Source: Chiloscyllium plagiosum (lineage: Eukaryota). Taken from it: a stretch of 64,000 nucleotides of DNA. The translations under genes were made by a program, and so were the position numbers. The notes beneath the pieces were generated by a model. It worked only from the letters and a program-made list of their open reading frames with translations, had not been told where the DNA came from and searched no databases. This document shows positions 5,285 through 54,900 of the stretch, piece by piece. The stretch spans positions 12,882,846 to 12,946,845 of the forward strand of contig NC_057749.1 in NCBI RefSeq assembly GCF_004010195.1, written 5' to 3'. Every line of letters begins with the position of its first letter. The first letter of the stretch is position 1.

Positions 5285-5990
5285 ACAAACCCTCTCATTC
5301 ACCCCCACCCACCCCATACCCACACTCTCACACCCCATACTCACACTCTCACCCCCATACCCTCATACCCAACCCCCCCATACCCACACTCACTCCAACC
5401 CCACACCCNNNNNNNNNNNNNNNNNNNNNNNNNNNNNNNNNNNNNNNNNNNNNNNNNNNNNNNNNNNNNNNNNNNNNNNNNNNNNNNNNNNNNNNNNNNN
5501 NNNNNNNNNNNNNNNNNNNNNNNNNNNNNNNNNNNNNNNNNNNNNNNNNNNNNNNNNNNNNNNNNNNNNNNNNNNNNNNNNNNNNNNNNNNNNNNNNNNN
5601 NNNNNNNNNNNNNNNNNNNNNNNNNNNNNNNNNNNNNNNNNNNNNNNNNNNNNNNNNNNNNNNNNNNNNNNNNNNNNNNNNNNNNNNNNNNNNNNNNNNN
5701 NNNNNTACTCACACTCTCACCCACCCCCAACACTCTCACCCACATACGCACCCATTCCCCAACCTCACACACATCTCTCCACCTGTATGCTCCTTAATCA
5801 CATACAATCTCATCCATCCACACACACATCTCACCCCACTCCATCCAAATCGGATATATTCAGCTACAGGCACATACCCATTTGCACACTCCCTCCATTA
5901 CACTCAAAACAACAGCAAGTACACTCTCTACATGTGCAGATTCTGACATTTGCTGTCTGAACAAACACACACATTCTCTCACATATAGAC
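5285..5990. repeat. C/A-rich low-complexity repeat flanking an assembly gap (N 5409-5704)
   Basis: Repeated cacactctcacccc-like units on both sides of the N run. Confidence 0.85.
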
Positions 5991-6774: not shown

Positions 6775-6861
6775 ATCATGGTGCTGGAAAAGCACAGCCG
6801 GTCAGGCAGCATTCAAGGAGCAGGAGAGAAGATGTTTTGAGTATAAGCTCTTCATCAAGAC

Positions 6862-11288: not shown

Positions 11289-11473
11289 GGGAGAAAATGA
11301 GGTCTGCAGATGCTGGAGATCAAAGTTGAAACTTTATTGCTGGAACAGCACAGCAGGTCAGGCAGCATCCAGGGAACAGGAGATTCGAAGTTCCTTTTGC
11401 CCGAAACGTCGAATCTCCTGTTCCCTGGATGCTGCCTGACCTGCTGTGCTGTTCCAGCAATAAAGTTTCAACT
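11289..11473. mobile_element. Penelope-terminus-derived hairpin element with 14-bp TSD
   Basis: Perfect 65-bp inverted arms 11324-11388 and 11409-11473, a 20-nt loop, and direct repeat TAGTAGAGATTAAG at 11275-11288 and 11473-11486. Confidence 0.9.
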
Positions 11474-14066: not shown

Positions 14067-14579
14067 NNNNNNNNNNNNNNNNNNNNNNNNNNNNNNNNNN
14101 NNNNNNNNNNNNNNNNNNNNNNNNNNNNNNNNNNNNNNNNNNNNNNNNNNNNNNNNNNNNNNNNNNNNNNNNNNNNNNNNNNNNNNNNNNNNNNNNNNNN
14201 NNNNNNNNNNNNNNNNNNNNNNNNNNNNNNNNNNNNNNNNNNNNNNNNNNNNNNNNNNNNNNNNNNNNNNNNNNNNNNNNNNNNNNNNNNNNNNNNNNNN
14301 NNNNNNNNNNNNNNNNNNNNNNNNNNNNNNNNNNNNNNNNNNNNNNNNNNNNNNNNNNNNNNNNNNNNNNNNNNNNNNNNNNNNNNNNNNNNNNNNNNNN
14401 NNNNNNNNNNNNNNNNNNNNNNNNNNNNNNNNNNNNNNNNNNNNNNNNNNNNNNNNNNNNNNNNNNNNNNNNNNNNNNNNNNNNNNNNNNNNNNNNNNNN
14501 NNNNNNNNNNNNNNNNNNNNNNNNNNNNNNNNNNNNNNNNNNNNNNNNNNNNNNNNNNNNNNNNNNTCAGAAAATATAG

Positions 14580-15756: not shown

Positions 15757-16392
15757 ATATAGGAGAAAGTGAGGACGGCAGATGCTGGAGATCAGAGTCA
15801 AAACATGTGGTGCTGAAAAAGCACAGTCAGTCAGGCAGTATCCGAGGAGCAAGACAGTTGACATTTCGAGTATAAGTTCTTCATCAGGAATGTGGGTATC
15901 CAAGCAGAGGGTGGAGCGGATAGGTGGGAAGGAAGATGGACAGGTTGGACAGTTCAAGACAGCAGTACCGGGTTGGAGGGTTGGATCTGGGATGAGGTGG
16001 GAGGAGGAGGAGGGGAGATTACGAAACTGGTGAAATTGACATTGATCCCCTGTGGTTGGAGGAGCCCAAGGCAGAAGATGAGGTGTTCTTCCTCCAGGCA
16101 TCTGGGTGCCTAAGATTTGGCAGTGGAAGAGGCCCAGGCCTTGCATGTCCTTGGTGGAGTGGGAGGAAGAGTTGAAGTGTTCGGCCACAGGGTGGTGGGG
16201 TTAATTGGTGCATGTGACCCAGAGATGTTCTCTGAAACCTTCCGCAAGTTGGCGTCCTGTCTCCCCAATGTAGAGGAGACCACATCGAGAACAGTGCACA
16301 CAGTAGATGAGGTGTTTGGATTTGCAGAAAAAGCTCTGCCGAATGTGGAAGGATCCTTTGGGGCCTTGGATGGAGGTGGGGGGAAGGTGTGA
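15757..16392 (-). mobile_element. Penelope-like element 3' part (GIY-YIG endonuclease plus terminal repeat)
   Basis: IQGPKGSFHIRQSFFCKSKHLIYCVHCSRCGLLYIGETGRQLAEGFREHL. The terminal repeat has CTGATGA...GAAA on the minus strand at 15858-15889. Confidence 0.9.
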
Positions 16393-17106
16393 GTGTCTCA
16401 TTGAAGGTTCTAAGCCACAGTATTTATTCTGGTCAATAGAGATGGAGTAATGAGTCCAATAAACATAGATTGCACACATCTTAACAATCTGTGCATCTAC
16501 CTGGAGCCCCTATGTAATACACAACAGCTTCCCACAGTCCGACCCTTTTCTCTGATATAGCAAACCCATATAGTTCCTTCAGCAGGATGTAAATTCAATC
16601 CATTAATTCCCCTTGTTTAATGTAATGAATTATTCACTCCATACATTTTCAGTGGTACACACTGCTTAGTGTGCACAACTCTCTCACAGTGTGATACACT
16701 GCTCCTTATGTAACATATCTAGTGGTTTTCAGTGCAACAAATTCTCAAACAATACTGCTTATCTATACGGCCTATCTGATATAAACCTCGGTTCACTCTG
16801 TACAGCTATTTTGCTTGCCCACTATCAATGACATCTTTCCTTTGAGCAGGACAAGATCATCACAGAGATTATTAATACAATGAATGTCCTTGGACATTTA
16901 GTTGAACAAATAACAGATATATATCAATGGAGCAGGAAAGATAAAATTGAGGTTTAAGGCAGTTTCTTTTCTGTACCTAGCAATTATGAACTGGCACAAA
17001 CTCATTTATGGTGAGGTCCCAACTTGAGAGGACCAACAAAAGTTGATCATACCAATGCGAACCTCAACATTTTTTGAGATCTGCTATAATTGAGTGGTAA
17101 GCTTAC

Positions 17107-18544
17107 CTTTCTGAACATGAATGATATCTGGGAAATTGGACAGTAGGCCTTGGTACAGGGAAAGTGTGTCCAACATATGGAACAGATCATTCTTAGGTTG
17201 TTCTGCAAACAACTCTCCAATGGCTTCATACGTTTTGCCAGTGTTGGAAATGGCCTTGTTCAGAGGGACTGCAAGATGTGGTTGATCCAATTCAAATGCC
17301 TGACTTATTGAATTAAAAGCATTGCCTAATTTCTGAAATTCCTTCCTGAAGCCTCCAACATGTTTGCGGCAGAGGTCTGTGGCCACATTGGTCAGTTGCA
17401 GCACACTGTCATCCATCCTCTTGGAGAAGGTTTTGAACGTGTCCACCCTCTCCTCCACATCCTGAAGATCCTGATGCTCCTGTGGGATTTGGATGGTCAG
17501 GAAAGAATTGGCACCGACTAATTCATCTTTCTCCATTCGTCGTTTTCCCTGTTTCCAGGCCCTGTCATCTGTGCAAGTTAGGAAGTGTTGAAATCCCTCG
17601 TATTGGGATAGCACTGGATGGCTTGTCATGTGGTCCATCCACAGAATCAAGCGTCTCTTGCGTTTCTCAATGAAATCATCTTCAAATCGGCCAGTGGCCT
17701 GCTTCTCTGGCAGATGTGGCACAGAGATGACAGAGAACTTGTGCAGCAGCCTGTTGTGTAGCCAGTCGAAATGTTTGTAGCGACGATAAACAGGGTTGTT
17801 GGTTTGACTAGGCGTCAGCTTGTAGGAGATGTAACTCTTGATGCCTTTAAACTTGGTTTGCTTGGTGGGTTCCTCAATGGTACAGGTAAAGGGGTGAGGG
17901 CTCTCGCTCCACTGAGGCCCATCAGGGCTCATCACCACACCGTAGGTTTCTGAAGTCTTAAAGACAGCAGGTACCTCACCCAGAATGAATGCCTCTCCTC
18001 CAGATCTAACAAAACTTGAGAAACGGTTGAAGTTCTTGCCCACAGCACTGCTTTTAGTGCTAAGCCTGCTGGCAGTGCTGTCCTGCCTCTCCACTGATGG
18101 CTTTTGCCTGTACGTCACGTTGGGATATGGGGAGACTGTATATGGATGGAGATGATTGTGGCCATTGGTGTTACTGGACACACCAGGTTCATCGAACACA
18201 GTGGAAGAGTCATCCCAGTCATCCCAATCATCATCATCATCTTCTTCATAGCTGCCCTGTTGGTAGGAGGAGGCTGAACTGGGGGAGTAAATTGCAGAGT
18301 GATTCCCTGCTGAGTGGTGAGTGAAAGTGGAATTGGAAGTGTATGGTAAGGGTGTGCTGGGCTTGAGAATTTCCACATAAGAAGCTGGAAAGAGCCCTTT
18401 GTCTCCTCGACTGTTCTGGCCTTCCAGCCAACCATCCAAAGACTTCTCGTTAAAAACCAGCAGCTGCTCGTTTTCGTGGATGCTGATCTCCTCGGGGTTC
18501 TCACTCTGGAAGCTGTAAAGAGCTTTGGCTTTGATGGAAGCCAT
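17107..18544 (-). CDS. SNX33: Sorting nexin 33, coding exon 1 (SH3, low-complexity, PX and most of BAR domain)
   Basis: N-terminal SH3 (ALYSFQSENPEEISI...SLDGWLEGQNSRG..GLFPASYVEI), acidic EEDDDDDWDDWDD, PX (RRYKHFDWLHNRLLHKFSVISVPHLPEKQATGRFEDDFIEKRKRRLILWMDHMTSHPVLSQYEGFQHFL) and BAR. Ends ...HVQK G|GTAAGC, a phase-1 donor, consistent with the two-exon SNX33/SNX18 structure. Residues are closer to SNX33 than SNX18. Exon 2 was not found in the window. Confidence 0.93.
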
Positions 18545-19110
18545 GGTCCAAGGATGGGGAAGGGGGCTGCAGCAGTATCTCCTCGGGGATCTGGCAGCTG
18601 GAGGTGGGTGCGGACTATCGCTTCAACTGACTCCTCTCCAGCTCGGCTTTCTCCAGCCGGGAAAAGGACGGCGGGCGGCTAGTTCGCAGCTCCTACCGAC
18701 TCCCTTGCTCCGAGTACATTGTTCAGCTCGGTAATTTGTTCCTTGCGTCCAAGTCCCAGCTGTAAGCTGTGTCCCGGGAGTCTGTGACCTCTCAAGCGAT
18801 GGCTGCGGCCAAACTCCTCTTTGTTATGATGAGCTCCCGTACTTTGACGCGCAGCAAAAGTTTTGCAGCTTGCAAAAGAAGTTCGCGACTGCCCTCTAGG
18901 TATTGGATATTGGACACTCCAAGGAAACACATCCCATTGATCCTTCTTAAGCGCCTGGGTTCAAGGCAGGCACTGACTGCTACGGTTGGGTCCGGTCAAC
19001 ACCCCCTCCCTCCGTCCATGGTAACTAACCAACCAGTGTAAGGGTTTTGTGGGTTATTTGACCATTGGGCTCCGGCCAAATTAGAGCACGGGGACACGAG
19101 GAGGCCAGTC
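18545..19110 (-). promoter_or_regulatory. SNX33: SNX33 5' UTR / CpG-enriched promoter region
   Basis: Local rise in GC and CpG directly upstream of the ATG, with no recognisable repeat. Confidence 0.55.
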
Positions 19111-19827: not shown

Positions 19828-20083
19828 ATAACAGGAATTGCTGGAGAAACCGCCGAGATTCTTTATCATTATTTCAGTCATTTTAGTGCTGTATGGGCAA
19901 TTATATCACCTCCATCAAACTATACCTTATATCATGGAACTGGTGTCAAAGTATAGACAAGGCGTGTGAGAATAAAAATATTCACTGTCCCTATTTCTGG
20001 CAGAAGCAGCGACATTCCAGTGAAAATAAAAACGAGCATCTCTGGCCTGACCTTTTCATCATACTGGGCCATCCAATCATATC

Positions 20084-20231
20084 TGAGAAAGTGAGGACTG
20101 CAGATGCTGGAGATCAGAGTCCAGAGTGTGGTGCTGGAAAAGCACAGCAGGTCAGGCAGCATCCGAGGGGCAGATGAACAGCTTATGCCTGAAACATTGA
20201 TTCTCCTGCCCTCGGATGCTGCCTGACCTGC
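20084..20231. mobile_element. Penelope-terminus-derived fold-back element
   Basis: gcaggtcaggcagcatccgagggg pairs with ccctcggatgctgcctgacctgc. The loop has a decayed cagatga...gaaacatt motif. Confidence 0.75.
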
Positions 20232-20376
20232 ACACCATCCAATTATATCCAAGTACATTCCAAATGATCTTCACTACATAAAAGTGACTGCTTCAAACCT
20301 AGTCTCAATGAAGTTCTACACTGTCAAACTTGCTCACAGACATTGCAGCTATCTTTAAAAAACAATTAAACTTGTG

Positions 20377-20423
20377 ATCGCTTCTCAGCCTTTTGGCTAA
20401 GATCAAGTGTCTGTTCTTATCAG
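20377..20423 (+). pseudogene. RNU2: U2 snRNA 5' fragment (about nt 1-52, 5-nt deletion) forming the head of a Tx1 element
   Basis: ATCGCTTCTCAGCCTTTTGGCTAAGATCAAGTGT-----CTGTTCTTATCAG versus U2 ATCGCTTCTCGGCCTTTTGGCTAAGATCAAGTGTAGTATCTGTTCTTATCAG. Begins exactly at U2 +1. Confidence 0.93.
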
Positions 20424-20581
20424 GACGGGGGTCGAGTTGCGAGTCATCAGAGCTAGTGGAGATCATCGCTGGATCGTGATTGGATGTTGGAGGATCGTTT
20501 GGTTGTGCTGACCTGCTATTGGTGGATCTTCATGCTGGCTTCGGCCTAACGCAAATTCAGGGACCAGCCAACCTCCGAGCT

Positions 20582-22012
20582 ATGGCCTTAACAGCTGCCT
20601 GCACCCCGGGCCAGGGGGTTCGAAACACAGTCCGGGTGACTGTCAAGAAGGTGGAGGAGCGTACACCGGTTGATCGGACGGTGTTCGTCAAGAAGATTTT
20701 GCTCGAGTGCTGTGGGTTCACTGTAGCAGGATTTCCCTGGGGCAGGCTACTTTGACGTCACCTTCAGGAGCGTGAAGCAATGTGAGCAACTACTGAAGGT
20801 CTTCAACGAAAAGGAAGGGGAGCCGCTGTTCTCCATCTTGTCGGCGGTCCCGTTGTCTGTGCTTCCTGCACAGAGGAGTCGGGTTGTTACGATCCACACG
20901 TACAACCCCTATGTTCCAGCAACCGATGTCCTGACGTTCCTGAGAAGATATGTGCAGGTTGAGGGAGAAAGCACCGACGTGGTTGACCCTTTCGGGATCT
21001 GGACCAGCAAACAACAGGTCAAGGTAACCCTGAGGGTTGATGCCAGTGGGAACACCCTCCACCCACCCTCCAGCTTTGCTAATGGAGGGAGCAGAGGGTA
21101 CCTGACATATGCAGGGCAGCCGAAAGTGTGCCAAACCTGCGGGAGGTCAGGCCACATGGCGGCGGAATGCAAGGTCACGATCTGTCGGAACTGCAAGAAG
21201 GAGGGCCACTCGACCAAAGAATGCAAGGAGGCCAAGAACTGCAGTCTGTGCGGGAAGGTGGGCCATGTGTACAAGGCCTGCCCAAAACGAGGGGCCGCCA
21301 CCTATGTGCAGATGGCCAGAGGTGGGCCACAAAAGGACAGCAAGGCACCACTAACCAGCAAGGGAACAGTGTCTGTGGGCACGCAAAAGGAAGGACAGGC
21401 CGGAGCGGAGCAGCTGTCAGCTACAGGAGAGGTACAGCGGCCGAGCGAAGCTCCGACAGGACAGATGGAGGAGGAGGAGAAGGGAAAGAAGGAGGCAGAG
21501 GAATGGATCCTGGTACAAAACAGGAGGAAGAAAACCCGCCAAGCCGCCAAAACCTCCCAGAAAAGGGGGAAACGGCAGCTGCACGGGGAATACACGGACA
21601 GCTCCTCAGAGGGTGAGGATGGGCGCAAGGAGGGTCATCACCAAAAGAAGAGACAGAGCGCTGTGTGAGAAAGGAGGGCAGCACTTGCCAAACAAGGGAC
21701 GAACCTCTTGAGGCAATGGGAAACGACCACCCCCCACCAGGTGAAAGCCAGGAGGGCCCCACCGTCACACAGCTCCAGGTCACTGGATATAGAAGCAGAC
21801 AGCGTGGACCCTGGTCCCGGCCCGATGACACCGGAGCAGGCAAATGGGCCCCAGTGAGGAGCTGGACAGCTACCTCAGCCCCGCGAGGGTCCAGCAGTTC
21901 ATGTTCACCATGGGGATGCAGACAGCTACCCCAGAGGGGCAGGACCAGCGGCAAATGGACACGGGTAACCTCACAACTTGTTAAAAATGGGGATAAGAAT
22001 TGCAAGTATTAA
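20582..22012 (+). pseudogene. Tx1 ORF1 (gag-like, ZCCHC3-like, 3x CCHC), frameshifted
   Basis: MALTAACTPGQGVRNTVRVTV, FDVTFRS, DPFGIWT, RGYLTYAGQPKVCQTCGRSGHMAAEC, CRNCKKEGHSTKEC, CSLCGKVGHVYKACP. Confidence 0.85.
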
Positions 22013-25000
22013 TGTGCGCAGCATAAAATCTGCTGCATGATGTGTTTCAACACTGGCCTTCCTCGCCAACGTCAAAGCCGATGTCCTGTTTCTGCAGGAG
22101 TTTGGGATACCACACCTCAGCAGTTACAGGAGATGGTTGAGCTTGTGGGCCCATGGGCCATCAGTTTGGTCGGGGGGCAACGATAACCGCTCCTCAGGCC
22201 TGGGTATTCTGTTGCGAGGAGGCAACTTCACCATCTCCGAGGTTAAGGAGGTGGTGGGCAGGCACCTCCTTGTCGCTGATATTACATACAGAAATGCTCC
22301 CCTGAGACTGATTAATGTGTACGCCCCAGCGGGTAAAAGTGAACGGTTGGCCGTCCTGCAGCAGCTTCCACTGTTGCTGGCTACGTCCAGGCCAGTCATT
22401 CTGGCCGGAGACTTCAACTGTATCATTGATGCAGATGGACGATCCGGTGGGGGGGGGAGGTTGGGACAGTAAACAGGATCCATGTCCAGAGCCCTGATGG
22501 AAACGGTCAAAGATGCCAAGCTGCACGACGTCTTCAGCATCCCTGCAGACGGAGCGCAGTGTAGATACACCTGGTCACGGGCAGACGGGTTTATCCGCTC
22601 AAGGATAGATTACCTGTTTGTGTCCCGAACGTTCTCGGTCAGAACCACCGACGTCTTCTCTGACCACTGCCTCCTGCTGGCCGACTGTCACCTACAGGAC
22701 GAGCAGCAGGCTGGTAAGGGAACGTGGAAACTGAACACTAAGCTGTTGACCCCGGGAAACATCGAGGAGCTCAAGAGGGACTACGCAGGTTGGAGAACCG
22801 TGAAGCCCCTCTTTGAGTCCCCAGCGGACTGGTGGGAAACAGTAAAAGGGAACATCAAGAGGTTCTTCATCCTCAAAGGTGTTCAGGAGGCGAGAGAGAG
22901 GCGGGGAAAACTGTCCCAGCTCCAGGAAAGTATGCAGAACCTGCTCCTGCTGCAGACCTTGGGGGTCGATGTCACGGAGGACCTCAAGGAGGTGAAGGGC
23001 CAGCAAGCCTCCCTCTTTGCCTCGGAGGCCTCCAAGATAATCTTTCGGTCCAGGATCCGCTCCATGGAGCAGGATGAGACGTGCTCACGTTTCTTCTTCC
23101 AGAAGGTGCACAAAGAGAGCTCTGTGCTCAGCAGCCTGAAGGAAGAAGATGGCTCGATAACGTCATCTCAGGCTGACATCAGGATCAGCAAATCTTTCTA
23201 TGCCAGTCTGTATGACTCGAAGCCAACCAACAGCGCGGCCTCCCAGTCATTCCTGTCCTCTATCACGGAGGTCGGAGATGACAGAACACGGGAGAGGCTG
23301 GACTAGCTGCTATCTCTGGACGAGCTGACCAAGGCCCTCGAGTCCTTCGAAAAGAATAAAACTCCCGGAAGTGACAGCTTACTGGTCGAGATCTATTCTG
23401 CTCTGTGGGACTTGATTGGCCAGGACCTGCTAGAGGTGTATGTCAGTATGCTTCGGGCAGGTACCATGAGTGAATCCATGAGGAAAGGCATCATCACCCT
23501 CTTCTACAAGTGGAAGGGGGAGAGGGAGGAAATTAGAAATTGGAGACCAATCTCACTGTTAAACACAGACTACAAAATCTTGTCAAAGGTCATCGCCAAC
23601 CGGGTCAGGTCTGCTCTGGGATCGGTGATCCACCCTGACCAAACCTGTGCTGTACTGGGCAGGAAGGTCGCCGAGAGTCTCGCACTCCTCAGGGATACGA
23701 TTGCCTACGTGCAGGACAGGGGGGTGGACACCTGCCTCATCAGCCTGGACCAGGAGAAAGCCTTTGACAGGATATCGCATACATATATGAGGGATGTCCT
23801 CTCCAAAATGGGCTTCGGGGAGGGAATCGCTAATTGGATCAGACTGCTCTACACCAACATTGTCAGTGCAGTCTCAATTCATGGGTGGGAATCAGATAGC
23901 TTCCCAGTCAGATCTGGAGTCAGGCAGGGCTGCCCCCTCTCTCCTGCCTTGTTTGTGTGCTGCATAGAGCCATTTGCCGAATCCATCAGGAAGGATGCGG
24001 GCCTGAGAGGGGTGACTATTCCTGGCAGCGGGGGCCTGCAGGTTAAGGCCTCCCTGTACATGGATGACGTCGCCGTTTTCTGCTCGGATCCGCTGTCCGT
24101 GCGCAGACTCATGTGCATCTGTGACCAGTTTGAGCGGGCCTCGGGGGCCAAGGTAAACCGAGGCAAGAGCAAAGCCAAGCTCTTCGGGAACTGGGCCGAC
24201 CAATCCTCTATCACCTTCACCATCAGGACCGACTACCTGAAGGTGCTGGGTATTTGGTTCAGGGAGGCTGGGGCGTGTGCCAAGACCTGGGAGGAGTGGA
24301 TCAGGATGATGAAACAGAAATAGGCAGATGGGAGCAATGGTCGCTCTCCATCGCCGGGAAGAGCCTGATCATCAGGTGTGAGGTACTCTCGGTATTGTTA
24401 TATGTGGCACAGGTCTGGCCTATCCCCAGAACCTGTGCTGCCGCAGTCACCCGGGCCATCTTCCACTTCATGTGGAGATCAAAGATGGAATGGGTCCGAA
24501 GGGACACAATGTACAAAGACCAGAACAATGGGGGAAAAAACACGCCCAATACCATCCTCACCCTGATGGCCACCTTTATGTGTGGCTGCATCAAGCTGTG
24601 CGTGGATCCCCGGTACGCAAACACCAAGTGTCACTACGTACTGAGGTTCTACCTGTCCCTGGTGTTGCGAAGGATGGGCCTGGCCTCGCTGCCGCAGAAC
24701 GCTCCGAGTAGTTGGACCGTTCTGTACCACCTCTCCTTCGTGGAGAAGTTTATGAAGAAAAACACCTTTGACCACAAGTCCATCAGGAAGTGGTCAGCAC
24801 GTAGTGTCCTTGAGACCCTTCGGGAAAAGGAGAGGGCAGATCCTGTCGAGCGATTCCCTGAGCAGACTGTCAAAGCCATTTGGCAGAATGCTTCATCACC
24901 AGAACTTTCCAACAAGCACCAAGACATGGCATAGCTGGTGGTGAGAAGGGCTCTGCCTGTGAGATCCTTTATGTACACCCGGACTCTCTGCTGCCCCGCA

Positions 25001-25387
25001 CGCTGCCCTCGAAGCGGCTGCGGGGGGGACGAGACTGTCACCCACCTCCTTCTGGAATGTGCCTATGCAGAGGAAGTCTGGAGAGGAATGCAGTGGTGTT
25101 TGTCGAGGTTCGTCCCGAGCAGCGCCGTGACGCGGGACTCCATGCTCTACAGCCTGTTCGCCGGGACGCACACTGAGACGAACATCAACTGCGTCTGGAG
25201 GATCATCAACTCGGTGAAGGACGCTCTCTGGGCGGTCCGAAACCTGTTGATCTTCCAGCTGAAGGAGTTGACCCCGACTGAGTGTTGTGGACTGGCACAT
25301 TCCAAGGTCCAGGACTACGTGTTGAGGGACGCGCTGAAGCTTGGGGCAGCTGCCGCCAACGCATGGTGGGGAAAGACCACCGTGTAA
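21987..25387 (+). pseudogene. Tx1 ORF2 (APE endonuclease, reverse transcriptase, zf-RVT), disrupted
   Basis: MGIRIASINVRS, LFLQE, LINVYAP, ILAGDFNC, SRIDY, SDH; WRPISLLNTDYKIL, LDQEKAFD, GVRQGCPLSP, YMDD; CPRSGCGGDETVTHLLLEC; ends WWGKTTV*. Confidence 0.9.
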
Positions 25388-25621
25388 CATCTGCCTGCCT
25401 AACGAAGAACAGGGGGCCCACGCAGTCATTTGGGCTCCGCTGGCGTCTCAGCTAAAAATGTAATCGCACAGACCTGTAAATATGAATGATTACTCTGTTT
25501 CGGATTGCAAAGAAACTGAAGGCTTACATATGTATGGCATATCCAATTGTACAGATCATCAAAGTATTTTATGAATAAAGTATATTTTTAAAATAAAAAA
25601 AATTAAACTTGTGCAGTGAGA

Positions 25622-28600
25622 CCCTGAAGGTCAATGCCAGTAGGAACATTCTCCACCCACCCTCCAGCTTTGCAATCAGAGGAAGCAGAGGGTACCTGAC
25701 GTACGCAGGGCAGCCAAGAGTGTGCCGAACCTGTGGGAGGTCAGGCCACATGGCGGCGGACTGTAAGGTCACTATCTGTCAGAACTGCAAGAAGGAGGGT
25801 CACCCGACCAAGGAATGTAAAGAGGCCAAGAACTGTAATCTGTGTGGGGAGGCGGGCCACGTGTACAAGGCCTGCCCAAGACGAGGGGCCACCACCTACG
25901 CACAGATGGCTGGAAGTGGCAATGCGAGCTGTGGACCTCAAATGGCCAACAAGGTACCACAAACCAGGAGAACGGTGTCTGGGGGCACCCAGAAGGATGG
26001 AGCGGAGAGAGACGGCAGCCAGCGGGGAGGTGCAGCAGCCAATCCAAGCTCCTACAGGACAGATGGAGGAAATGGAGGAGGAACGAACCAAGGAGGCAGA
26101 GGAGTGGATTCCTGTAAAAAGGAGGAAACCTCGCGAGGCCCCCAAAATCACCCAGCAAAGGGGGAAATGACACTTGCATGAGGAGGATACAGGCAGTTCT
26201 TCAGATGGCGAGTACGGGCGTAAGGAGGGTCGTCATCAGTGGAAGAGACAAAGCGCCGCGGGGAAAAAGAAGGGCAGCACCCTCCAGACAGGAAAGGTCG
26301 AACCCTCTGAGGAGACTGGTAAAGACCACCCCCCCACCCAGTGAGAACCAGGAGGTACCTACTGCCCCACAGCTCCAGGTAACTGGGAGCAGCGACCCTC
26401 TGACAGCCCCGCTGTCAGACAGAGAACTGGACTGTGTGGACCCTGGTCCTGACCCAAAGACACCAGAGCAGGGAAATGCCTGCATTGTGGAGCTGGACAG
26501 CTACCTCAGCCCTGACAGTGTGTCCAGCAGTTCGTGTTCCCCACAGGAATGCAGATAGCTATCCCAGAGAGACAGGACCAGCAGCAAATGGACACTGGTA
26601 ACCTCATAAACTGTTAAACTGGGGATAAAAATTGCCAGTATTAATGTGCGTAGTATTAAATCTGCTACGCAATGTGTTTCTATGTTGTCCTTCCTCACCA
26701 ACGTTAAAGCTGATGTCCTGTTTCTGCAGGAGTGTGGGATACCGCACCTAAGCACCTACAGGAGATAGTCAAGCTCGTGGGCCGATGGGCCGTCAGTTTG
26801 GTCAGTGGGCAACGATAGTTGCGCCTCCGGCCTGGGTATCCTGTTGTGAGGAGTCAACTTCACCGTGAATCCCCTGTTTTGAGTCTCCAGCGGACTGGTG
26901 GGAAACAGTAAAAAGGAACATCAAGAGGTTCTTCATCCTCAAAGGTGTTCAGGAAGCGAGAGAGAGGTGGGGAATAATGTCCCAGCTCCAGGAAAGTATG
27001 CAGAACCTGCTCCTGCTGCAGACGATAGGGGTGGATGTCACGGAGGACCTTGAGGAGGTGAAGGGCCAGCAAGCCTCCCTCTTTGCCTCGGAGGCCTCCA
27101 AGATAATCTTCCGGTCCAGGGTCCGCTCGGCGGAGCAGGACGAGACGTGCTCACGTTTTTTCTTCCAGAAGGTGCACAAAGAGAGCTCTGTGCTCAGCAG
27201 CCTGAAGGAAGAAGATGGCTTGGTAACGTCATCTCAGGCTGACGTCATGAGGATCAGTAAATCCTTCTGAAGGGGGAGAGGGAGGAACTCAAAACTTGGA
27301 GACCAATCTCACTGTTGAATGCGGATTACAAAATTCTGTCAAAGGTAATCGCCAACCGGGTCAGGTCTGCTCTGGGGTTGGTGATTCACCCTGACCAAAC
27401 CTGTGCGGGCAGGCAGATCGCTGAGAGTCTCGCACTCCTCTGGGATACGATCGCCTACGTGCAGGACAGAGGGTCGGACACCTGTCTGATCAGCCTGGAC
27501 CAGGAGAAAGCCTTTGACAGGATATCACACATGTATATGAGAGATGTTCTCTCCAAAATGGGTTTTGGGGAGGGAATCTGCAATTGGATCAGCCTGCTCT
27601 ACACCAACATTGTCAGTGCAGTTTCAATCAATGGGTGGGAATCAGATAGCTTCCCAGTCAGATCTGGAGTCAGGCAGGGCTGCCCTCTCTCTCCTGCCTT
27701 GTTTGTGTGCTGCATAGAGCCATTGGCCGAGTCCATCAGAAAGGATGTGAGCCTGAGAGGGGTGACTATTCCTGGCAGCGGGAGCCTGCAGGTTAAGGCC
27801 TCCCTGTACATGGATGACGTCGCCGTTTTCTGCTCGGATCTGCTGTCCGTGCGCAGACTCATGTGCATATGTGACCAGTTCGAACGGGCCTCGGGGGCCA
27901 AGGTAAACAGAAGCAAGAGCGAGGCCATGCTCCTCGGGAACTGGGCTGACCAATCCTCGATCCCCTTCACCGTCAGGACCGACCACCTGAAGGTGCTCGG
28001 TATTTGGTTCGGAGGGGCTGGGACTTGCACCAAGTCTTGGGAGGAGCGGATCAGCAAAGTGAGGCAGAAACTGGGCAGATGGAAGCTATGGTCGCTCTCC
28101 ATCGCGGGAAAAAACCTGGTCATCAAGTGTGAGGCCTTGTCATTGCTATTATGTGTGGCACAGGTCTGGCCTATTCCCAGAACCTGTGCCGCTGCAGTCA
28201 CCCGGGCCATCTTCCAATTTATATGGACATCAAAGATGGACCAGGTCCGAAGGGACTTGATGTATAAAGATCTGGGCAACGGGGGAAAAAATACACCCAA
28301 TGCCACCCTCATCCTGATGGCCACCTTTGTGTGTGGCTGCATCAAGCTGTGCGTGGATCCCCGATACGCAAACACCAAGTGTCACTACGTACTGAGGTTC
28401 TACCTGTCCCCGGTGTTGCGAAGGATGGGCCTCGCTGCCGCGGAACACTCCAAGTAGTTGGACCGTTCCGTATCACCTGTCTTTTGTGGAGAAGTTTATG
28501 AAGAAAAACACCTTTGACCACAAGTCCATCAGGAAGTGGTCAGCACGTAGTGTCCTTGCGACCCTTCAGGAAAAGGAGAGGGCGGATCCTGTCAAGCGGT

Positions 28601-29349
28601 TCCCTGGGCAGACTGTCAAAGTCATTTGGCAGAATGCCTCATCGCCAGAGCTTTCCAACAAGCACCAAGACATGGCTTAGCTGGTGGTGAGAAAGGCTCT
28701 GCCTGTGAGATCCTTTATGTACACCCGGACTCTCAGCCGCACCGCACGCTGCCTTCGAAGCGGCTGTGGAGGGGACAAGACTGTCACACACCTCCTTCTG
28801 GAATGTGCCTACGTAAAGGAAGTCTGGAGAGGAATGCAGTAGTGTTTGTCGAGGTTCATCCCAAGCAGCTCTGTGACGCGGGACTCCATGCTCTACGGCC
28901 TGTTCCCCGGACACACACCGAGACGAACATCAACTGTGCTTGGAGGATCATCAACTCGGTGAAAGACACTCTTTAGTCTGTCCGAACCTGTTGGTCTTCC
29001 AGCTGAAGGAGCTGACCCCGCTTGAGTGTTGTGGACTGGCACATTCCAAGGTCCAGGACTACGTGTTGAGGGACGTGCTGAAGCTTGGAGCAGCTGCCGC
29101 CAAGGCGCGGTGGGGAAAGACCACCGTGTAAGGTCTGCCTGCCAAAGAAGAACAGAGGGCCCGCGCAGTAATCGGGCTCTGCTGACGCCTCAGCTAAATA
29201 TATGGATAGTAAACGTACAGACCTGTATATGAATGATTACTCGATCTCTGTATGTAAAGAAATGCAAGGTACGCCTATGAATGGCATCACCAATTGTACA
29301 GATCATCAAAATATTTTATGAATAAAGCCTATTTTTGAAATTTAAAAAA
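25622..29349 (+). mobile_element. 5'-truncated, internally deleted Tx1-clade element, copy 2
   Basis: Starts within ORF1 (TLKVNASRNILHPPSSF); RT 27315-28457 with YMDD; ORF2 ends WGKTTV* at 29131; AATAAA at 29321; TSD AATT(A/G)AACTTGTGCAGTGAGA at 25601-25621 and 29350-29370. Confidence 0.92.
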
Positions 29350-29829
29350 AATTGAACTTGTGCAGTGAGAAAGAGAACCTGAAATCCAATTAGTTTGGTT
29401 TTCAGGAGTGTGAAAATCTGCAATTTGTCAGTTTAAAGCAGATAATTGTTCATCACCAATGGTTTTTAACTGATTTACTCATCAGTCAGCTGCCGATTCT
29501 AAAGAAAAAGTAAAGATAATATTAACATTTTTAAAAACTAAGTTCATGCAGAGAAAGGGAATTGACCGTGAACAACAACTTGGATCAATCAAACTTTACA
29601 TTACAGACTGCACCTGGATTAATAGGAATCTGAAAACATATCATTTTCATCAATTCAACTCTTGAGCTTTCATTAGTAGTTTGAATCTGGAAGACAGGAA
29701 ATGCAACAAATCAGTTGTAAATGAGATCAATACTTTGCTATAGGAAATATGAAAATATCTGGAAATTTCTATCGACTAGGGAAAAAGTAATAGGACATGG
29801 AAGAGCAAAATAACGTGGATGGTGGAGAT

Positions 29830-30076: not shown

Positions 30077-33000
30077 AGACCATAAGACATAGGAGCAGAA
30101 ATTAGGCCATTCAGCCCATCATGTAGCTCTGCCATTCAATCGAGCCTGACATTGGTGGTGGGTAAGTTGTTGGAGGGAATCTGAGGGACAGGATTTACAT
30201 GTATTTGGAAAGGCAAGGACTGATTAGAGATAGTCAGCATGGCTTTGTGTATGGGAAATCACATCTCACGAACTTGATTGAGTTTTTTGAAGAGGTAATG
30301 AAGAGGATTAATGAGGGCAGAGCAGTGGACGTGATCTATATGGACTTCATTAAGGCATTTGACAATGCCTTACTGAGACTGGTTAGCAGGTTAGTTCTCA
30401 TGGAATACAGGGAGAACAAGCCATTTGGATAGAGAACTCGAAGGTAGAAGACAGAGGGTGATGGTGGAGGGTTGCTTTTCAGACTGGAGGCCTGTGACCA
30501 GTGGTGTCAGAAGGGTCAGTGCTGGGTCCACTGCTTTTTGTCATTTATATAAATGATTTGGATGTGAACATAGGAGGAACTGTTAGTAAGTTTGCAGATG
30601 ACACCAAAATTGGAAGCATAGTGGACAGCGAAGGTTACATCAGCGTACAATGGGATCTTGATCAGATGGGTCAATGGGCTGAGGAGTGGCAGATGAAGTT
30701 TAATTTAGACAAAGGTGAGATGCTGCATTTTGGAAAAGCAAATCAGAGAAACACTTATACACTTAATGGTAATGTTCTGGGGAGTATTGCTTGAAAGTGG
30801 AGTTGCAGGTAGATAGGATATTGAAGAAGGTGTTTGATATGCTTTCCTTTGTTGGTCAGAGCATCGAGTATAGGAGTTGGGAGGTCATGTTGTGGCTGTA
30901 CAGGATGTTGGTTAGGCCACTTTTGGAATATTGGTTGCAATTCTGATGTCCTTCCTATCAGAAGGATGTTGAGAAACTTGAAAGGGTTCAGAAAAGATTT
31001 ACAAGCATGTTGCCAAGTTTGGAGGATTTAAGCTACAGGGAGAGGCTGAACAGGCTGGAGCTGTTTCCCTGGAGCATCAGAGGCTGAGAGTGAGCGTATA
31101 GAGGTTTATAAAATCATGAGGGGCATGGATAGGATAAATAGACAAGGTCTTTTCCCTGGGGTGAGGGAGTCCAGAACTCGAGGACATATGTTTAGGGTGA
31201 GAGAGGAAAGATATAAAAGGGACTTAAGAGGCAACCTTTTCAGAAGAAGGAGCTGCCAGAGGAAGTGTTGGCGGCTGGTACAATTATAGCATTTAAAAAG
31301 ACATCTCGACGGGTATATGAATAGGAAGGGTTTAGAGGGATAGGGCCAAGTACTGGCAAATAGAACTAGATTAGGTTAGGATATCTGGTCAGCATGGACA
31401 AGTTGGACTGAAGGGTCTGTTTCCATGCTGGACATCTCTATGATTCTCTGATTCTATGGCTGATAAGTATCTCAACCCCATTCTCCCGCTTTCTCCCCAT
31501 AACCCCTGATCCCTTGATACTCAAGACCCTATCTATCTCAGTCTTAAATATACTCAATGACCTGGCCTCCACAGACTTCTGTGGCAATGAATTCCATAGA
31601 TTCACCACTCTTCGGCTGAAGAAGTTTCTCCTTTTCTCCGTTCTAACAGGTCTTCCCTGAGATGATGCCCTTGGGTCCCAGTTTCTCCTACCAACGGAAA
31701 CATCTTCCAACATCTACTCTGTCCAGGCCATTCAGTATTCTGTATGTTTCAATTAGATCCCCCGCCCCCAATCCTTCTAAATACCATCAGGTATAAACCC
31801 AGGGTCCTCAAATGTTCCTCATGTGTTACATTTTTCATTCCTGGGACCATCCTCATCTGAACATGCTCCAGGTTCAGTATATCCTTCCTGAGATATGTAA
31901 ATGTGGCCTGACCAGAGCATTATAGATCCTCAGAAGTACATCCCTATTTTCATATTCAAGTGCACAAAATAAATGCCATCATTGCATTTGCCTTCCTAAC
32001 TGCTGACTCAACCCATAAGTTTACCTTGAGAGAATCCTGGACTAGAACTCCCAAGTCTCTTTGCACTTCAGGCTTCTGAATTTTCTCCCCATTTAGAACA
32101 TAGTCCATGCCTCTATTCTTCCAAGCAAAGTACATGCCCACACATTTCCACATTGTATTTCATCTGCCACTTCTTTGCCCACTCTCCTAAATTGTCTAAA
32201 CCCTTCTGAGGACTCCCTGCCTCCTCAATGCTACCTGTCCCTTTACCAATCTTTGTATCATCTGCAATCTTAGCCAGAATGCCCTCAGTTCCTTCATCCA
32301 GATCGTTAATGTATAAGGTGAAAAGTTGTGGTCCCAACAGTGAGCCTTGCGGATCACCACTTGTCACTGGCTGAGAAGGACCCTTAAATCCCCACTCTCT
32401 GCTTCCTGCCAGACTGCCAAGCTTCTCTCCATGCTAGCACCTTGTCTCTGACACCTTGGGTCCTTATCTTACTCAGCAGCCTCCTGTGCAGCACCTTGTC
32501 AAAGGCCTTCTTGAAGTCCAGGTAGATAACAGCCATTGGCTCTTCCTAGACTAACCTACTCGTTACGTCCTAAAAGAATTCTAGCAGATTTGTCAGGCAT
32601 GACCTCCCCTTAATGAAACCATGCTGACTTTGCCCTTTTTTTATCATATGCCTCCAATTGTTCAGAAACCTCATCCTTCACAATGGATTCCAGGATCTTA
32701 CCCATGACCGAGGTTAAGCTAATTGGCCTGTAATTTTCCATTTTTTGCCTGACTCCCTTTTTAAGCAGAGGCGTCACATTCGTGATCTTCCAGTTCTCTG
32801 GTACCCTTCCTGATTCTAGCCATTCCTGAAAGATCACCATTAACACCTCCACTATATCTTCAGCTATCTCCCTTAGAACTCTGGGATATAGTCCATCTGG
32901 TCCAGGTTATTTATCCACCTTCAGGCCATTCAGTTTTTCTTGCACTTTCTCCTTGCTGATGGCCAGCATTTTGGGATATTACTCGTGTCTTCCTCTATGA

Positions 33001-34218: not shown

Positions 34219-35627
34219 TTACAACGGCCCCACTCCCCACCTTTTCCTCTGCTACATTGATGACTGCATCAGCGCCACCTCATGCTCTCGCGAGGAGGTT
34301 GAACAGTTCATCAACTTCACAACACATTTCACCCCAACCTTAAATTCACCTGGACCATCTCTGACAACTCCCTCCCCTTCCTGGATCTCTCCATCTCCAT
34401 CAACGATGACAGACTCAACATTGACATTTTCAAGAAACCCACCGACTCCCACAGTTACCTGGATTACACCTCCTCTCACTCTACCTCCTGCAAAACTGCT
34501 ATCCCGTATTCCCAATTCCTCTGCCTCCGCCGCATCTCCTCCCAAGAGGACCAGTTCCACCACAGAACACACCAGATGGCCTCCTTCTTTAAAGACTGCA
34601 ATTTCCCCTCCCACGTGGTTGAAGCCACCCTCCAACACATATCGTCCACATCCCGCACCTCCGCCCTTGATCCCCACTCCTCCAACCGCAACAAGGACAG
34701 AACCCTCCTAGTCTTCACCTTCCACCCCACCAACCTCTGCATAAATCGTATCATCCGCCGACATTTCTGCCACCTCCCCACCACCAGGGATATATTTCCC
34801 TCCCCACCCTATGTGCAAAGACTGTTCCTCCGTGACTACCTGGTCAGGTCTACGCCCCCCCCAACAACCCACCCTCCCCTCCTGGCACCTTTGCCTACCA
34901 CCACAGGAATTGCAAAACCTGCGCCCACACCTCTCCCGACCTCTGTCCAAGGCCCCAAAGGGGCCTTCCACATCCATCAAAGTTTCACCTGCACTTTCAC
35001 ACGTCATTTATTGTATCCGTTGCTCCCAATGTGGTCTCCTCTACATTGGGGAGACTGGATGACTTCTCACAGAGCGCTTCATGGAAAATCTCTGGGACAC
35101 CCGCAACAATCAACCCCACCGCCCCATGGTCGAACATTTCAACTCCCCCTCCCACTCTGCCGAGGACATGCAGATTCTGGGCTTCTTCCACCACCACTTC
35201 CTCATCACGCGACGCCAGGAGGAAGAACGCCTCATCTTCTGCCTTGGGACCCTTCAACCCCAGGGCATCAATGTGGACTTCACCAGTTTCCTCATTTCCC
35301 CTCCCCCTACCTTACCCCAGTTCCAAACTTCCAGCTCAGCACCATCCTCATGACTTGTTTCGCCTGTCAATCTTCCTTCCCACCTATTCCCTCCACCCTC
35401 CTCTCCGATCCGTCACCTCCATCCACCAATTGCTCTCAGCTACCTCCTCCCAGCTCCACTCCCCTCCCATTTATCTCTTCCCCCCCCCCACCGAGGCTCC
35501 CAGCCTCATTCCTGATGAAAGACTTTTGCCCGAAACATCGATTTTCCTGCTCCTCAGATGCTGCCTGACCTGCTGTACTTTTCCAGCACCACTCTAATCT
35601 CCAGCATCTGCAGCACCCACTTCTGCC
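34219..35627 (+). mobile_element. Penelope-like retroelement (RT C-terminus, GIY-YIG, terminal repeat with hammerhead-like core), 5'-truncated
   Basis: PHLFLCYIDDC (RT), HVIYCIRCSQCGLLYIGETG (GIY-YIG), EHFNSPSHS, LIFCLGTLQPQGIN; CTGATGA...GAAAC at 35512-35540. Inserted in an older LINE remnant. Confidence 0.92.
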
Positions 35628-36980: not shown

Positions 36981-37833
36981 AGGTTGCTTTTCAGGTTGGA
37001 GGCCTGTGACCATTCATGTGCCACAAGGATTAGTGCTGGGTCCACTGCTTTCTGTCATTTATATAAATGATTTGAATGTGAACATAGCAGATATGGTTAG
37101 TAAGTTTGCAGATGACAACAAAATTGGTGGTGTAGTGGACAGAGAAGGTTACCTCAGAGTACAACAGGATCCTGATCAAATGAAGTTTATATTAGAGAAA
37201 TACAAGGTGCTGCATTTTGGAAAGGCAAATCAGAGCAGGACTTATACACTAAATAGTAAGGTCCTGGGGGCTGTTGCAGAACAAAGAGACCTTGGAGTGC
37301 AGGTTCATAGTTCCTTGAAAATGGAGTCCCAGGTCGATAGGATAGTGAAGAAGGCATTTGGATTGCTTGCTTTTATTGGTCAGAGCATTGAGTATAGAGT
37401 TGAGAGGTCATGTTGCAGCTGAACATTGGTTATGGCAATATTTGGAATACTACATGCAATTCTGGTCTCCCTGCTATAGGAAAGATGTTATGAAACTTGA
37501 AATGGTTCAGAAAAGATTTACAAGGATGTTGCCAGGGTTGGAGGGTTTTAGTTATAGGGAGAGGCTGAATAGGCAGGGGCGATTTCCCCTGAAGCGTCAG
37601 AGGCTGAGGGGTGACCTTATAGAGGCTTATATCATGAGGAGCATAGGAAGGGTGAATAGACAAGGTCTTTTCCACGGGTTGGGGTGAGTCCAAAACTAGA
37701 GTGCAAAGATTTAATCTGAGAGGGGAAAGATTTAACAGGGACCCAAGGGGCAAAATTTTCCCACAGAGAGTGGTACATGGAATGAGCTGTCAGAGGAGTT
37801 GGTGCAGGTTGGTACAATTACAACATTTAAAAG
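36981..37833 (+). mobile_element. CR1 LINE RT/3' fragment
   Basis: VPQGLVLGPLLSVIYINDL, KFADDNK, RDLGVQVHSSLK, QRLRGDLIEAY. Confidence 0.9.
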
Positions 37834-51939: not shown

Positions 51940-54900
51940 TGCAATGTGGTTGTTGTGGTCCATGTCGGGATAAACAGTATAGGCAAGACTAGGAAAGAGG
52001 GCCTGTTTAGGGATTATCAGGAACTACGCAAAGAATAGGTCCTCAAGGGCTATAATCTCCTGATTACTGTCTTGACCACATGCAAATTGGCATAAGGATG
52101 TGAGAATAAGGGAAGTGAACTTCTGTCTAAAAGAATGGTATGGGAAAGTGGGGTTCCTTTTCATGGAGCACTGCCATCAGTATTGGGACAGGAGGGATCT
52201 GTACTGTTGGGATGGAGTGCACCTGAACCAAGCTGGCACCAATGTTCTAGTGTCAATAGGGTGGTCAACAGGACTTTTAACAAGAAAGTGGGAGGGAATG
52301 GGAAGTTAAAACTCCAAGGAATAGGGTGGTCACTGGGAAACAAAGCAGCAGGTTAACATCTGTAGGGTTGGATTCAACTGCATGGAAAAATGTGATTTTA
52401 AAAATGAAAAGGGAGAACTCTGGTTATTAAAGTCTCCATCACACTAGTAGGGCAGTATTTGGAAAGGGTTAGGAATCAAACTTCAAGCGCACCTGACAAA
52501 TGACAAACCAAGAGGGACTGAAACTATTGTCTGAATGCGCACTGTATACAAAAAGATAAATGAGCGTGTGCTGCAGATCAGAATTGGCAGGTATGACTTG
52601 GTGGGCATCACAGAGGCATGGCTGCAAGGTGATCAAGACGAGGAGCTAAATATCCAAGGATATACATTCTATCGGAAAGACAAGCAGTTAGGCAGATGGG
52701 GTGGGAATGTCTTACTAGTAAGAAATGAAATTAAATCGATAATAAAAAACAAGCTTGGGTCAAATGATATAGAATTTGTGTGGGTAGAGCTGGGAATCTG
52801 CAAAGGTACAAACTTCATAGTGGGAGTTACGTACAGGTCTCCAAACAGTAGTCTGGATTTGGGACACCAAACTATGTCAGGAGATAGAAAGGCAAGGTTA
52901 CAATGATAATGGGGAACTTCAATATGCAGGTCGACTCGGAAAGTCAGGAATGTTTGAGATGGCTTTTTAGAGCAGCTTGTGGTGGAACCCACTAGGGAAT
53001 ACTGGATTTACTGTTGAGCAATGAGGCAGACTTGATGAGGGTTCCTTCACCTTAAGTTTTCTTAGGCAGTGAGCATAATATGATAGAATTTACTCTGCAA
53101 TTTGAGAGGGAGAAGTGGGATCAGATGTAATGGTATTGCAGCTGAGTAAAGGCAATTACAGAGGCATGAGGGAGGAGCTGGGTAGAGTTGACCGAGAGAG
53201 GAGCCTATCGGGAAAGACAGTGAAACAGCAATGGCAGGAGGTTGTGGAAGTAATTCAGGAGATTCAACAGCGATTCAACCAGTGGAAAAAGAAACATACT
53301 AAAGGAAGGATGAGCCAACCATGGCTGACCAGAGAAGTCAGGATATCCTAAAAGCAAATGAGAAAGCATATAATGTGGCGAAGGGCAGTCAGAAGCTTAC
53401 AAAGACCAACGGAAGACAAAAAAAATTAAATGAGGGTAAGCTAGTCAGTAATATAAAAGATGGCATGAATTTAGATATATAAAGGGCAAAATAGAGGCAA
53501 AAGTGGGCATTGGGCTGCTGGAAAATGATGCTGGAGAGATAGCATTTCTTTGTTACCCAATACAAAGTACTTTATCAGTCTTCACAGTGGAAGACGAGTA
53601 ATATCCCAAAATTGAGAGTATGGTGGCCATCACCAAGAAGGTGCTCGGAAAACTGAAAGGTCTGAAGGTGGATAAATTACCTGGACCAAATGGACTATAC
53701 CCCACAGTTCTGAAGGAAATAGCTGAAGAGATAGTGAAGGTGTTAGTAGTGATCTTTCTGGAATCAATGGAGTCTGGAAGGGTCCAGAAGACTGGAAAAT
53801 CGCTAATGTAACCCCCTTTTTTAAACAAGGAGTAAAGCAAAAGCGGGAAATTACAGGCTGATTAGCCTGACCTCGGTAAGATTGGAGTCCATTGTGAAGG
53901 ATAAGATTTGAGCACTTGCAAATGTATGGTATGAGGGCAAAGTCAGCATAGTTTCATCAAGGAGAGATTGTGTCTGACAAATCTGTTTGAATTCTTTAAG
54001 GGGTAATGAGTAGATTAGACCAAGGAGAGCCAATGGATGCTATCTACCTGGACTTCAAGAAGGCCTTCGATAAGGTGTTGCACAGGAGGCTACTAATCCA
54101 GATAAGGGCACTTTGTGTTAGAGGCATGGTCTTAACATGGTAAGAAGATTGGTTGTCTGGCAGACAGCAGAAAGTGGGGATAAAAGGGTCCTTCTCAGAG
54201 AGGCAGCTGGTGACCAGTGGTGTTCTGCAAGGGTCAGTGTTGGACCCACAACTTTTATGCATTAATGATTTTCAATGAAGGGACGGAGGGCATTCTGGTG
54301 AAGTTTGCAGATGATACAAAGATAGATAGACAGGCAGGTAGCATTTAGGGGGCAGGGAGGCTGCAGAAGGATTTAGACCAAGTGAGAGTGGGCAAAGAAG
54401 TGCCAGATGAAATACAATGGGAAAGTGTGAGGGCATGCACTTTCCTCCGGGGCATAGAGGCTTGGACTGTTTCTAAATGGGGAGAAAATTCAGAAGCCTG
54501 AAGTGCAGAGAGACTTGGGAATTCTAGTTCAGGATTCTCTCGAGGTAAACTTGCAGACTGAGTCAGTAGTTAGGAAGGCAATGCAATGATGGTATTTATT
54601 TTGAGGGAGCCAGAACATAAAAGCAGGGATGTACTTCTGAAGCTTTATAAAGCTGTGGTCAGACCACATTTCGAGTATTGAGAGTAATGTCTGGTCCCAT
54701 ACCTCAGGAAGGATGTATTGGCCCTGGAGGGGTCCAGAGGAAGTTAATGAGAATGATCCGTGGAATGAAAAGCTTAACACATGAGTAACATTTTAAGGAC
54801 TCTCTGGGGTTTATACTTGAAGTTTAGAAGGATGGGGGGAGGAATCTAGTTGAAATATACAGAATAATGAAGGGCCTGGATAGAATGGATGTTGGGAAGA

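Follow-up and report, generated by a model that had tools for sequence, protein, structure and literature searches.

A Tx1-type retrotransposon with a partial U2 snRNA at its 5′ end, inserted outside any U2 gene in Chiloscyllium plagiosum

Long interspersed nuclear elements (LINEs) of the Tx1 type that carry part of a small nuclear RNA (snRNA) at their very 5′ end have been described in crocodilians, namely Tx1-11_Crp with a U2 head and Tx1-2_Crp, Tx1-2B_Crp and Tx1-4_AMi with U1 heads (Kojima 2015, PMC4494074). In the same account, these Tx1-Mar families cluster with Keno and prefer a Mariner transposon, Mariner-N4_AMi, as their target (PMC4494074). That paper leaves the origin and transcription of the snRNA heads unsettled, with template switching favored, and states that SINEU, a group of short interspersed nuclear elements (SINEs), were not found outside crocodilians (PMC4494074). 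Keno itself and Utopia target U2 genes: the U2 sequence downstream of Utopia begins at nucleotide (nt) 39, its 3′ flank is the same as that of Keno, and one target-specific U2 element, Utopia-1_NVit, occupies a single target in tandem (PMC4640811). The Keno 3′ target has been quoted as 20 letters (PMC6136364). Here we describe a LINE of autonomous Tx1-type design, which we call copy A, in a 64,000-nt stretch of Chiloscyllium plagiosum DNA (contig NC_057749.1, positions 12,882,846 to 12,946,845; referred to as the window, in whose coordinates all positions are given). The first base of copy A inside its target site duplication (TSD) is U2-derived.

Copy A, a full-length element, occupies positions 20377-25600 on the + strand, about 5.2 kb, and is enclosed by a pair of 13-bp TSDs. 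Direct reading of the sequence gives the left TSD as the 13-mer AATTAAACTTGTG at 20364-20376 (+), which is repeated identically at 25601-25613. At the 3′ end, an AATAAA at 25574-25579 is followed by a run of eight A at 25595-25602. A scan against Rfam at a permissive threshold, for which three matches were listed, returned the U2 model at 20377, starting from model position 1, with 37.3 bits and an E value of 4.1e-06. Since copy A contains no more than the 5′ part of U2, this score stays under the family's gathering score of 46. The alignment takes in columns 1-34 and 40-50 of the model, on either side of a five-column gap, and can be continued by two letters that agree with columns 51-52. The U2-derived head, at 20377-20423 (+), holds 47 U2 letters that span U2 1-52. 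Its 5-nt gap can be placed at U2 35-39 or equally well at 34-38, and the head can be written as U2 columns 1-33/34 joined to 39/40-52. Besides that gap, the only departure of the head from the Rfam U2 consensus is one substitution, in column 11. One occurrence of a 23-letter U2 stretch of the head was counted in the window, whereas 100 shuffles gave an expectation of 0.00.

A sequence-only reading of this DNA had proposed that the element begins exactly at U2 +1, with about 52 nt of U2 within the TSD and outside any U2 gene, and that the inserted RNA was a chimera of U2 and element. The Rfam alignment confirms the start and the extent, as U2 1-52 minus 5 nt. At gathering thresholds, Rfam gave no match across the whole 64-kb window; there is therefore no U2 gene and no remaining part of U2 nearby, which upholds the location outside such genes. 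The chimeric RNA is likewise borne out, as a single TSD pair encloses both head and element and the insert starts at U2 position 1, so that the two were integrated as one unit. The same reading had described the 3′ flank as something other than the rest of U2. That part is correct, but the flank is not anonymous DNA: a related LINE, copy B, begins seven letters past the right TSD of copy A.

Both the end point of the head and the place where its gap falls relate to the site at which Keno cuts U2. The 14 letters that close the head (20410-20423) exactly match the opening 14 letters of the Keno 3′ target quoted in PMC6136364, and the gap, when placed at U2 34-38, directly abuts the Keno nick between nt 38 and 39. 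The sequence-only reading had placed the target near nt 37-38, which is close, although PMC4640811 and PMC6136364 have the 3′ flank start at U2 nt 39. Read in this way, the head looks like U2 1-33 followed by U2 39-52, that is, the upstream flank of a Keno-type insertion together with a 14-nt duplication. We infer that the source RNA already carried the U2 head, whose origin was a Keno-type residence in U2, and we give this reading a rough probability of 0.5.

According to this proposal, a Keno-type element would have nicked U2 at 38/39 and duplicated 14 nt, which would place U2 1-52 immediately upstream of the element. Transcription by the U2 promoter from +1 would then carry those 52 nt along as a 5′ transduction. 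The 5-nt loss beside the nick would most likely have been present in the source already. Copy A itself would be the product of target-primed reverse transcription of one RNA that began at U2 position 1. Both A and its neighbor B landed outside U2, at one site. A duplication of 14 nt fits the TSDs of copies A and B, which measure 13 and 20-21 nt. By analogy, heads that characterize whole families are known in the Tx1 group that clusters with Keno (PMC4494074) and would be in keeping with such an inheritance. The same may be said of the tandem insertion described for target-specific U2 elements (PMC4640811).

The main rival is a one-off template switch, which we consider possible but on the improbable side. 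Here the reverse transcriptase (RT), on reaching the 5′ end of the element RNA, would have switched to a U2 snRNA near nt 52 and continued as far as the 5′ end of that RNA, and the head would be private to copy A. Template switching onto snRNAs is the published account (PMC4494074) both for L1 chimeras and for the repeated addition of partial U1 or U2 sequences to the 5′ ends of SINEU and Tx1-Mar. The head has also barely diverged from U2, with its single substitution and single gap, and is therefore not much older than the insertion. However, a working U2 snRNA should not be without the five letters that are missing from the head. About 4.4 kb of coding sequence in copy A contains only two frame changes, from which we estimate that about 0.04 insertions or deletions would be expected in the 52-nt head by later decay. 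A later loss within the head is thus improbable, which argues that the head was not freshly copied from a working U2 RNA in this event. A switch would, in addition, have to land within U2 at nt 52 and not at the U2 3′ end, and it leaves unexplained why the head ends 14 nt beyond the Keno nick and why the gap abuts that nick.

Copy B bears on the choice of target. It lies at 25621-29349 (+), in the same direction as A, and is 5′-truncated at element position 651, as determined by blastn of A against the window. The blastn alignment to A consists of three blocks of 77%, 93% and 88% identity with two internal deletions between them, and tblastn of the window found no further copy of the family of copy A beyond A and B. 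Over 3660 aligned positions, 457 differ (12.5%), with 27 gaps; A and B did not arise by duplication but were inserted separately and belong to related subfamilies. A candidate third copy in the upstream flank was rejected, as its local alignment scores of 20 and 18 compare with a shuffle mean of 18.2 and a maximum of 27.

The 21-mer at 25601-25621 (+), which follows the A run of copy A, recurs after copy B as AATTGAACTTGTGCAGTGAGA at 29350-29370 (+), with one A-to-G difference. With one mismatch allowed, the window contains two matches to this 21-mer, against 0.01 expected. The layout of the locus is therefore 13-mer, A, 21-mer, B, 21-mer. The central copy of the target is shared: its first 13 nt are the right TSD of A, and 20-21 nt of it form the left TSD of B, whose right TSD is the 29350-29370 copy. 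Both of the two copies in the window thus have the same 3′ junction at the same target, with TSDs of 13 nt for A and 20-21 nt for B; the position of the nick inside the A run is ambiguous. With two of two copies at one 3′ junction, plain A/T-rich targeting fits poorly. The proposal that the lineage now inserts at A/T-rich sites is therefore doubtful, and the arrangement suggests instead that the copy A/B endonuclease prefers the shared site or re-uses sites that are already occupied.

The order of the two insertions matters for this interpretation. In comparisons with four protein references, copy B shows 3-5 stops in 757-785 amino acids and 3-4 frame changes, and copy A shows 3-4 stops in 1084-1315 amino acids and 1-2 frame changes; copy B may be somewhat older than A. 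If B was first, A re-used the original target, pointing to a site preference.

We found no support for a target inside a DNA transposon. No transposase domain is present in the flanks, the immediate flanks of the insertion site are unique within the window, and the site is surrounded by just one inverted repeat, a weak one (73 nt, 72.6% identity, E 0.003).

An assembly artifact, with either the junction between U2 and the leader or the A/B tandem misassembled, appears very unlikely. The assembly is scaffolded, as seen from runs of N at 5409-5705 (297 nt) and 14067-14566 (500 nt), and repeats are prone to assembly error. Against this, the exact 13-nt duplication around head plus copy A and the separate 21-nt duplication around B are the marks of two real insertions, and the 12.5% divergence between the copies makes their collapse or confusion unlikely.

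A more specific version of the Keno-type origin would have an elasmobranch Tx1 lineage descend from a U2-resident Keno, move to a new preferred site and retain U2 1-52, the former upstream flank with its 14-nt duplication, as a standing leader; deletion of the former nick site would protect this leader from being cut. We regard this version as unlikely. A 158-nt leader, at 20424-20581 (+), connects the head with the start codon of ORF1, and the ratio of observed to expected CpG is 0.75 over head and leader together (20377-20581) against 0.25-0.36 in the flanks. GC content is about 0.54 over 20-28 kb of the window and 0.35-0.47 around it. The CpG ratio bears on a further possibility, also raised in outline by the sequence-only reading, that the head is the fixed leader of an elasmobranch Tx1 lineage independent of U2 genes. 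In that case an internal promoter in the 158-nt leader would start transcription at the first U2 letter, and all full-length copies would be headed. The high CpG ratio relative to the flanks, the exact start at U2 position 1 and the existence of family-level heads in crocodilian Tx1 (PMC4494074) are in its favor. Yet there is one headed copy and no second one in the 64-kb window, and snRNA genes have no known internal promoter according to PMC4494074. A fixed leader also overlaps with the favored Keno-type origin, from which it differs solely in where the immediate source copy sat. We consider it quite improbable.

Several points weigh against the origin of the head in a Keno-type U2 residence. 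The sample is a single headed copy, and the truncated copy B is uninformative on heads. The 14-nt fit depends on a length of the Keno duplication that we deduced, and both coincidences, namely that the head ends at nt 52 and that the gap falls at the nick, were spotted after the fact. In PMC4494074, the crocodilian heads are attributed to template switching and were added repeatedly to elements that dwell in Mariner transposons, not to residents of U2 genes. The target site of copies A and B is unlike the quoted U2 target, with 4-7 of 20 letters in agreement when compared by eye. Lastly, CpG decay does not separate A and B in age (50 versus 42 sites, p = 0.47); if A was first, B may simply have entered the A-rich tail of A.

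The coding content of copy A is that of a Tx1-type element in decay. ORF1 extends over 20582-21668 (+) with its ATG at 20582, as established by Pfam matches and translation. It matches PF23058 (1e-23) and PF00098 (1.7e-08), as well as PF23057, which is divided between two frames; it thus encodes two RNA-binding domains of the ZCCHC3 type and CCHC zinc knuckles, with one frameshift near 20725-20745. A spacer at 21669-21986 (+) separates it from ORF2, at 21987-25387 (+), which was delimited by Pfam and by reading of stops and frames. The domain order of ORF2 is PF03372 (5.6e-10), PF00078 (3.2e-36) and PF13966 (9.6e-06), corresponding to an apurinic-type endonuclease at about 22056-22667, a reverse transcriptase with a YMDD motif at 23535-24254 and a zinc-binding tail at 24938-25081. 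Four stops (22038, 22470, 23304 and 24932) and one frameshift, near 24311-24323, interrupt ORF2. With six lesions in ORF1 and ORF2, copy A is dead. The 3′ untranslated region, at 25388-25600 (+), includes the AATAAA and the short A run and aligns with the 3′ end of copy B.

An ORF1 with RNA-binding domains and CCHC knuckles is typical of the Tx1 clade. The domains PF23057, PF23058 and PF00098 were also found in fish gene models that hold a related RT (for example P0165 and P0230). A protein search with a 338-residue RT piece of copy A retained 2697 proteins at E <= 0.001 among 5191 candidates. The top named relatives were from Mobula hypostoma (82% identity over 62% of the query) and from the whale shark, Rhincodon typus (a EukProt entry, 75% over 84%); by these relatives, the window resembles elasmobranch DNA. 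Among longer proteins, the RT piece scored 324 bits against the Danio 'transposon TX1 uncharacterized 149 kDa protein' and 316 bits against Takifugu BAD04856; its score against human L1 ORF2p was 159 bits. Accession look-ups for the fish reference proteins gave no element name such as Keno. Judged by these similarity scores and by its domain set, copy A probably belongs to the Tx1 clade. A metagenome scan with ORF1 gave a match in one of 109 candidate stretches, limited to 19 residues of a zinc knuckle, and a scan of viral contigs with the RT piece gave none in three candidates. Apart from its head, copy A is one more dead LINE without sign of a host function.

The surroundings of the pair are rich in LINE sequence. 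Unrelated RT fragments are located at 30498-30791 (+), 32116-32433 (-), 32655-32960 (-) and 54018-54272 (+), with Pfam RVT_1 matches of 1.8e-08 and 8.1e-05 and with 27-31% identity to the RT of copy A by tblastn. Downstream of copy B, a direct repeat of about 530 nt with 73% identity (30470-31000 and 36982-37519) partly overlies the fragment at 30498-30791. Directly upstream of the insertion site, at 20079-20231, is a short interspersed repeat that contains a palindrome. It recurs at least four times elsewhere in the window, in both orientations, with look-alikes at 11291-11444, 15757-15851, 35514-35622 and 6779-6856. A motif at 20270-20292, which precedes the head by about 85-107 nt, bears a loose resemblance to the snRNA proximal sequence element; as its distance is wrong and its position is outside the TSD, we read it as a chance resemblance. 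On the - strand, 17084-18622 is an intronless open frame of 512 amino acids with SH3, PX and SNX BAR domains, the latter matched over positions 1-157 of 236 (PF10456, 1.7e-66). This frame resembles the large first coding exon of a gene of the SNX9/18/33 type, and its start is about 1.7 kb from the LINE pair, which is on the upstream side.

The sequence-only reading had suggested an autonomous counterpart to snRNA-headed SINEs. Such a counterpart is already in print, in the form of the crocodilian Tx1 families with U1 and U2 heads (PMC4494074). Copy A is a new example of a snRNA-headed Tx1 element, not a new kind. A full-text literature search, whose coverage left out most subscription journals, turned up no publication on such elements from sharks or rays; copy A would extend their range beyond crocodilians. 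The end point of its head and the position of the gap relative to the Keno nick offer a checkable alternative to template switching, namely 5′ transduction from a U2 gene in which the element formerly resided. If the descent from Keno with a standing leader holds true, Tx1 heads, and by extension SINEU heads, can arise through promoter read-through from a targeted snRNA gene, without template switching.

Among known systems, Tx1-Mar offers a close parallel: it too comprises autonomous Tx1-type LINEs with a partial U1 or U2 at the very 5′ end, located outside snRNA genes (PMC4494074). It differs from copy A in its hosts, which are crocodilians and not elasmobranchs, and in its target, as that of copy A shows no features of Mariner or of another transposon. 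The head is also a feature of whole families in Tx1-Mar, whereas here it is known from a single copy. With Keno and Utopia, copy A shares the Tx1-type protein set, a head that ends 14 nt beyond the U2 38/39 nick with a gap that abuts it, and the tandem use of one site, as seen for Utopia-1_NVit (PMC4640811). In contrast to Keno, copy A is not in a U2 gene, and its 3′ flank consists of the 13-mer and then copy B instead of U2 from nt 39 onward.

The L1 template-switch chimeras, in which U6, U1 or U2 is joined to pieces of L1, Alu or pseudogenes, resemble copy A in combining a 5′ snRNA part and a LINE part within one TSD (PMC4494074). However, they typically join a full snRNA to a 5′-truncated 3′ piece, as the same text describes them (PMC4494074), whereas the U2 sequence of copy A ends at nt 52, out of 192 model columns, and the 158-nt leader and the ORF1 start are kept. 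Elements known for 5′ transduction, such as the SVA subfamily that uses the MAST2 promoter (PMC4494074) and R2 with its ribosomal RNA co-transcription, likewise carry upstream host sequence from a host promoter. For copy A, that promoter would be of the snRNA type, and the source locus is one that we infer. Finally, the crocodilian SINEU also have a partial U2 or U1 head, and SINEU-3 is described as a U2 copy with an internal deletion that starts after nt 32. Those elements are short and non-coding, whereas copy A is autonomous in design.

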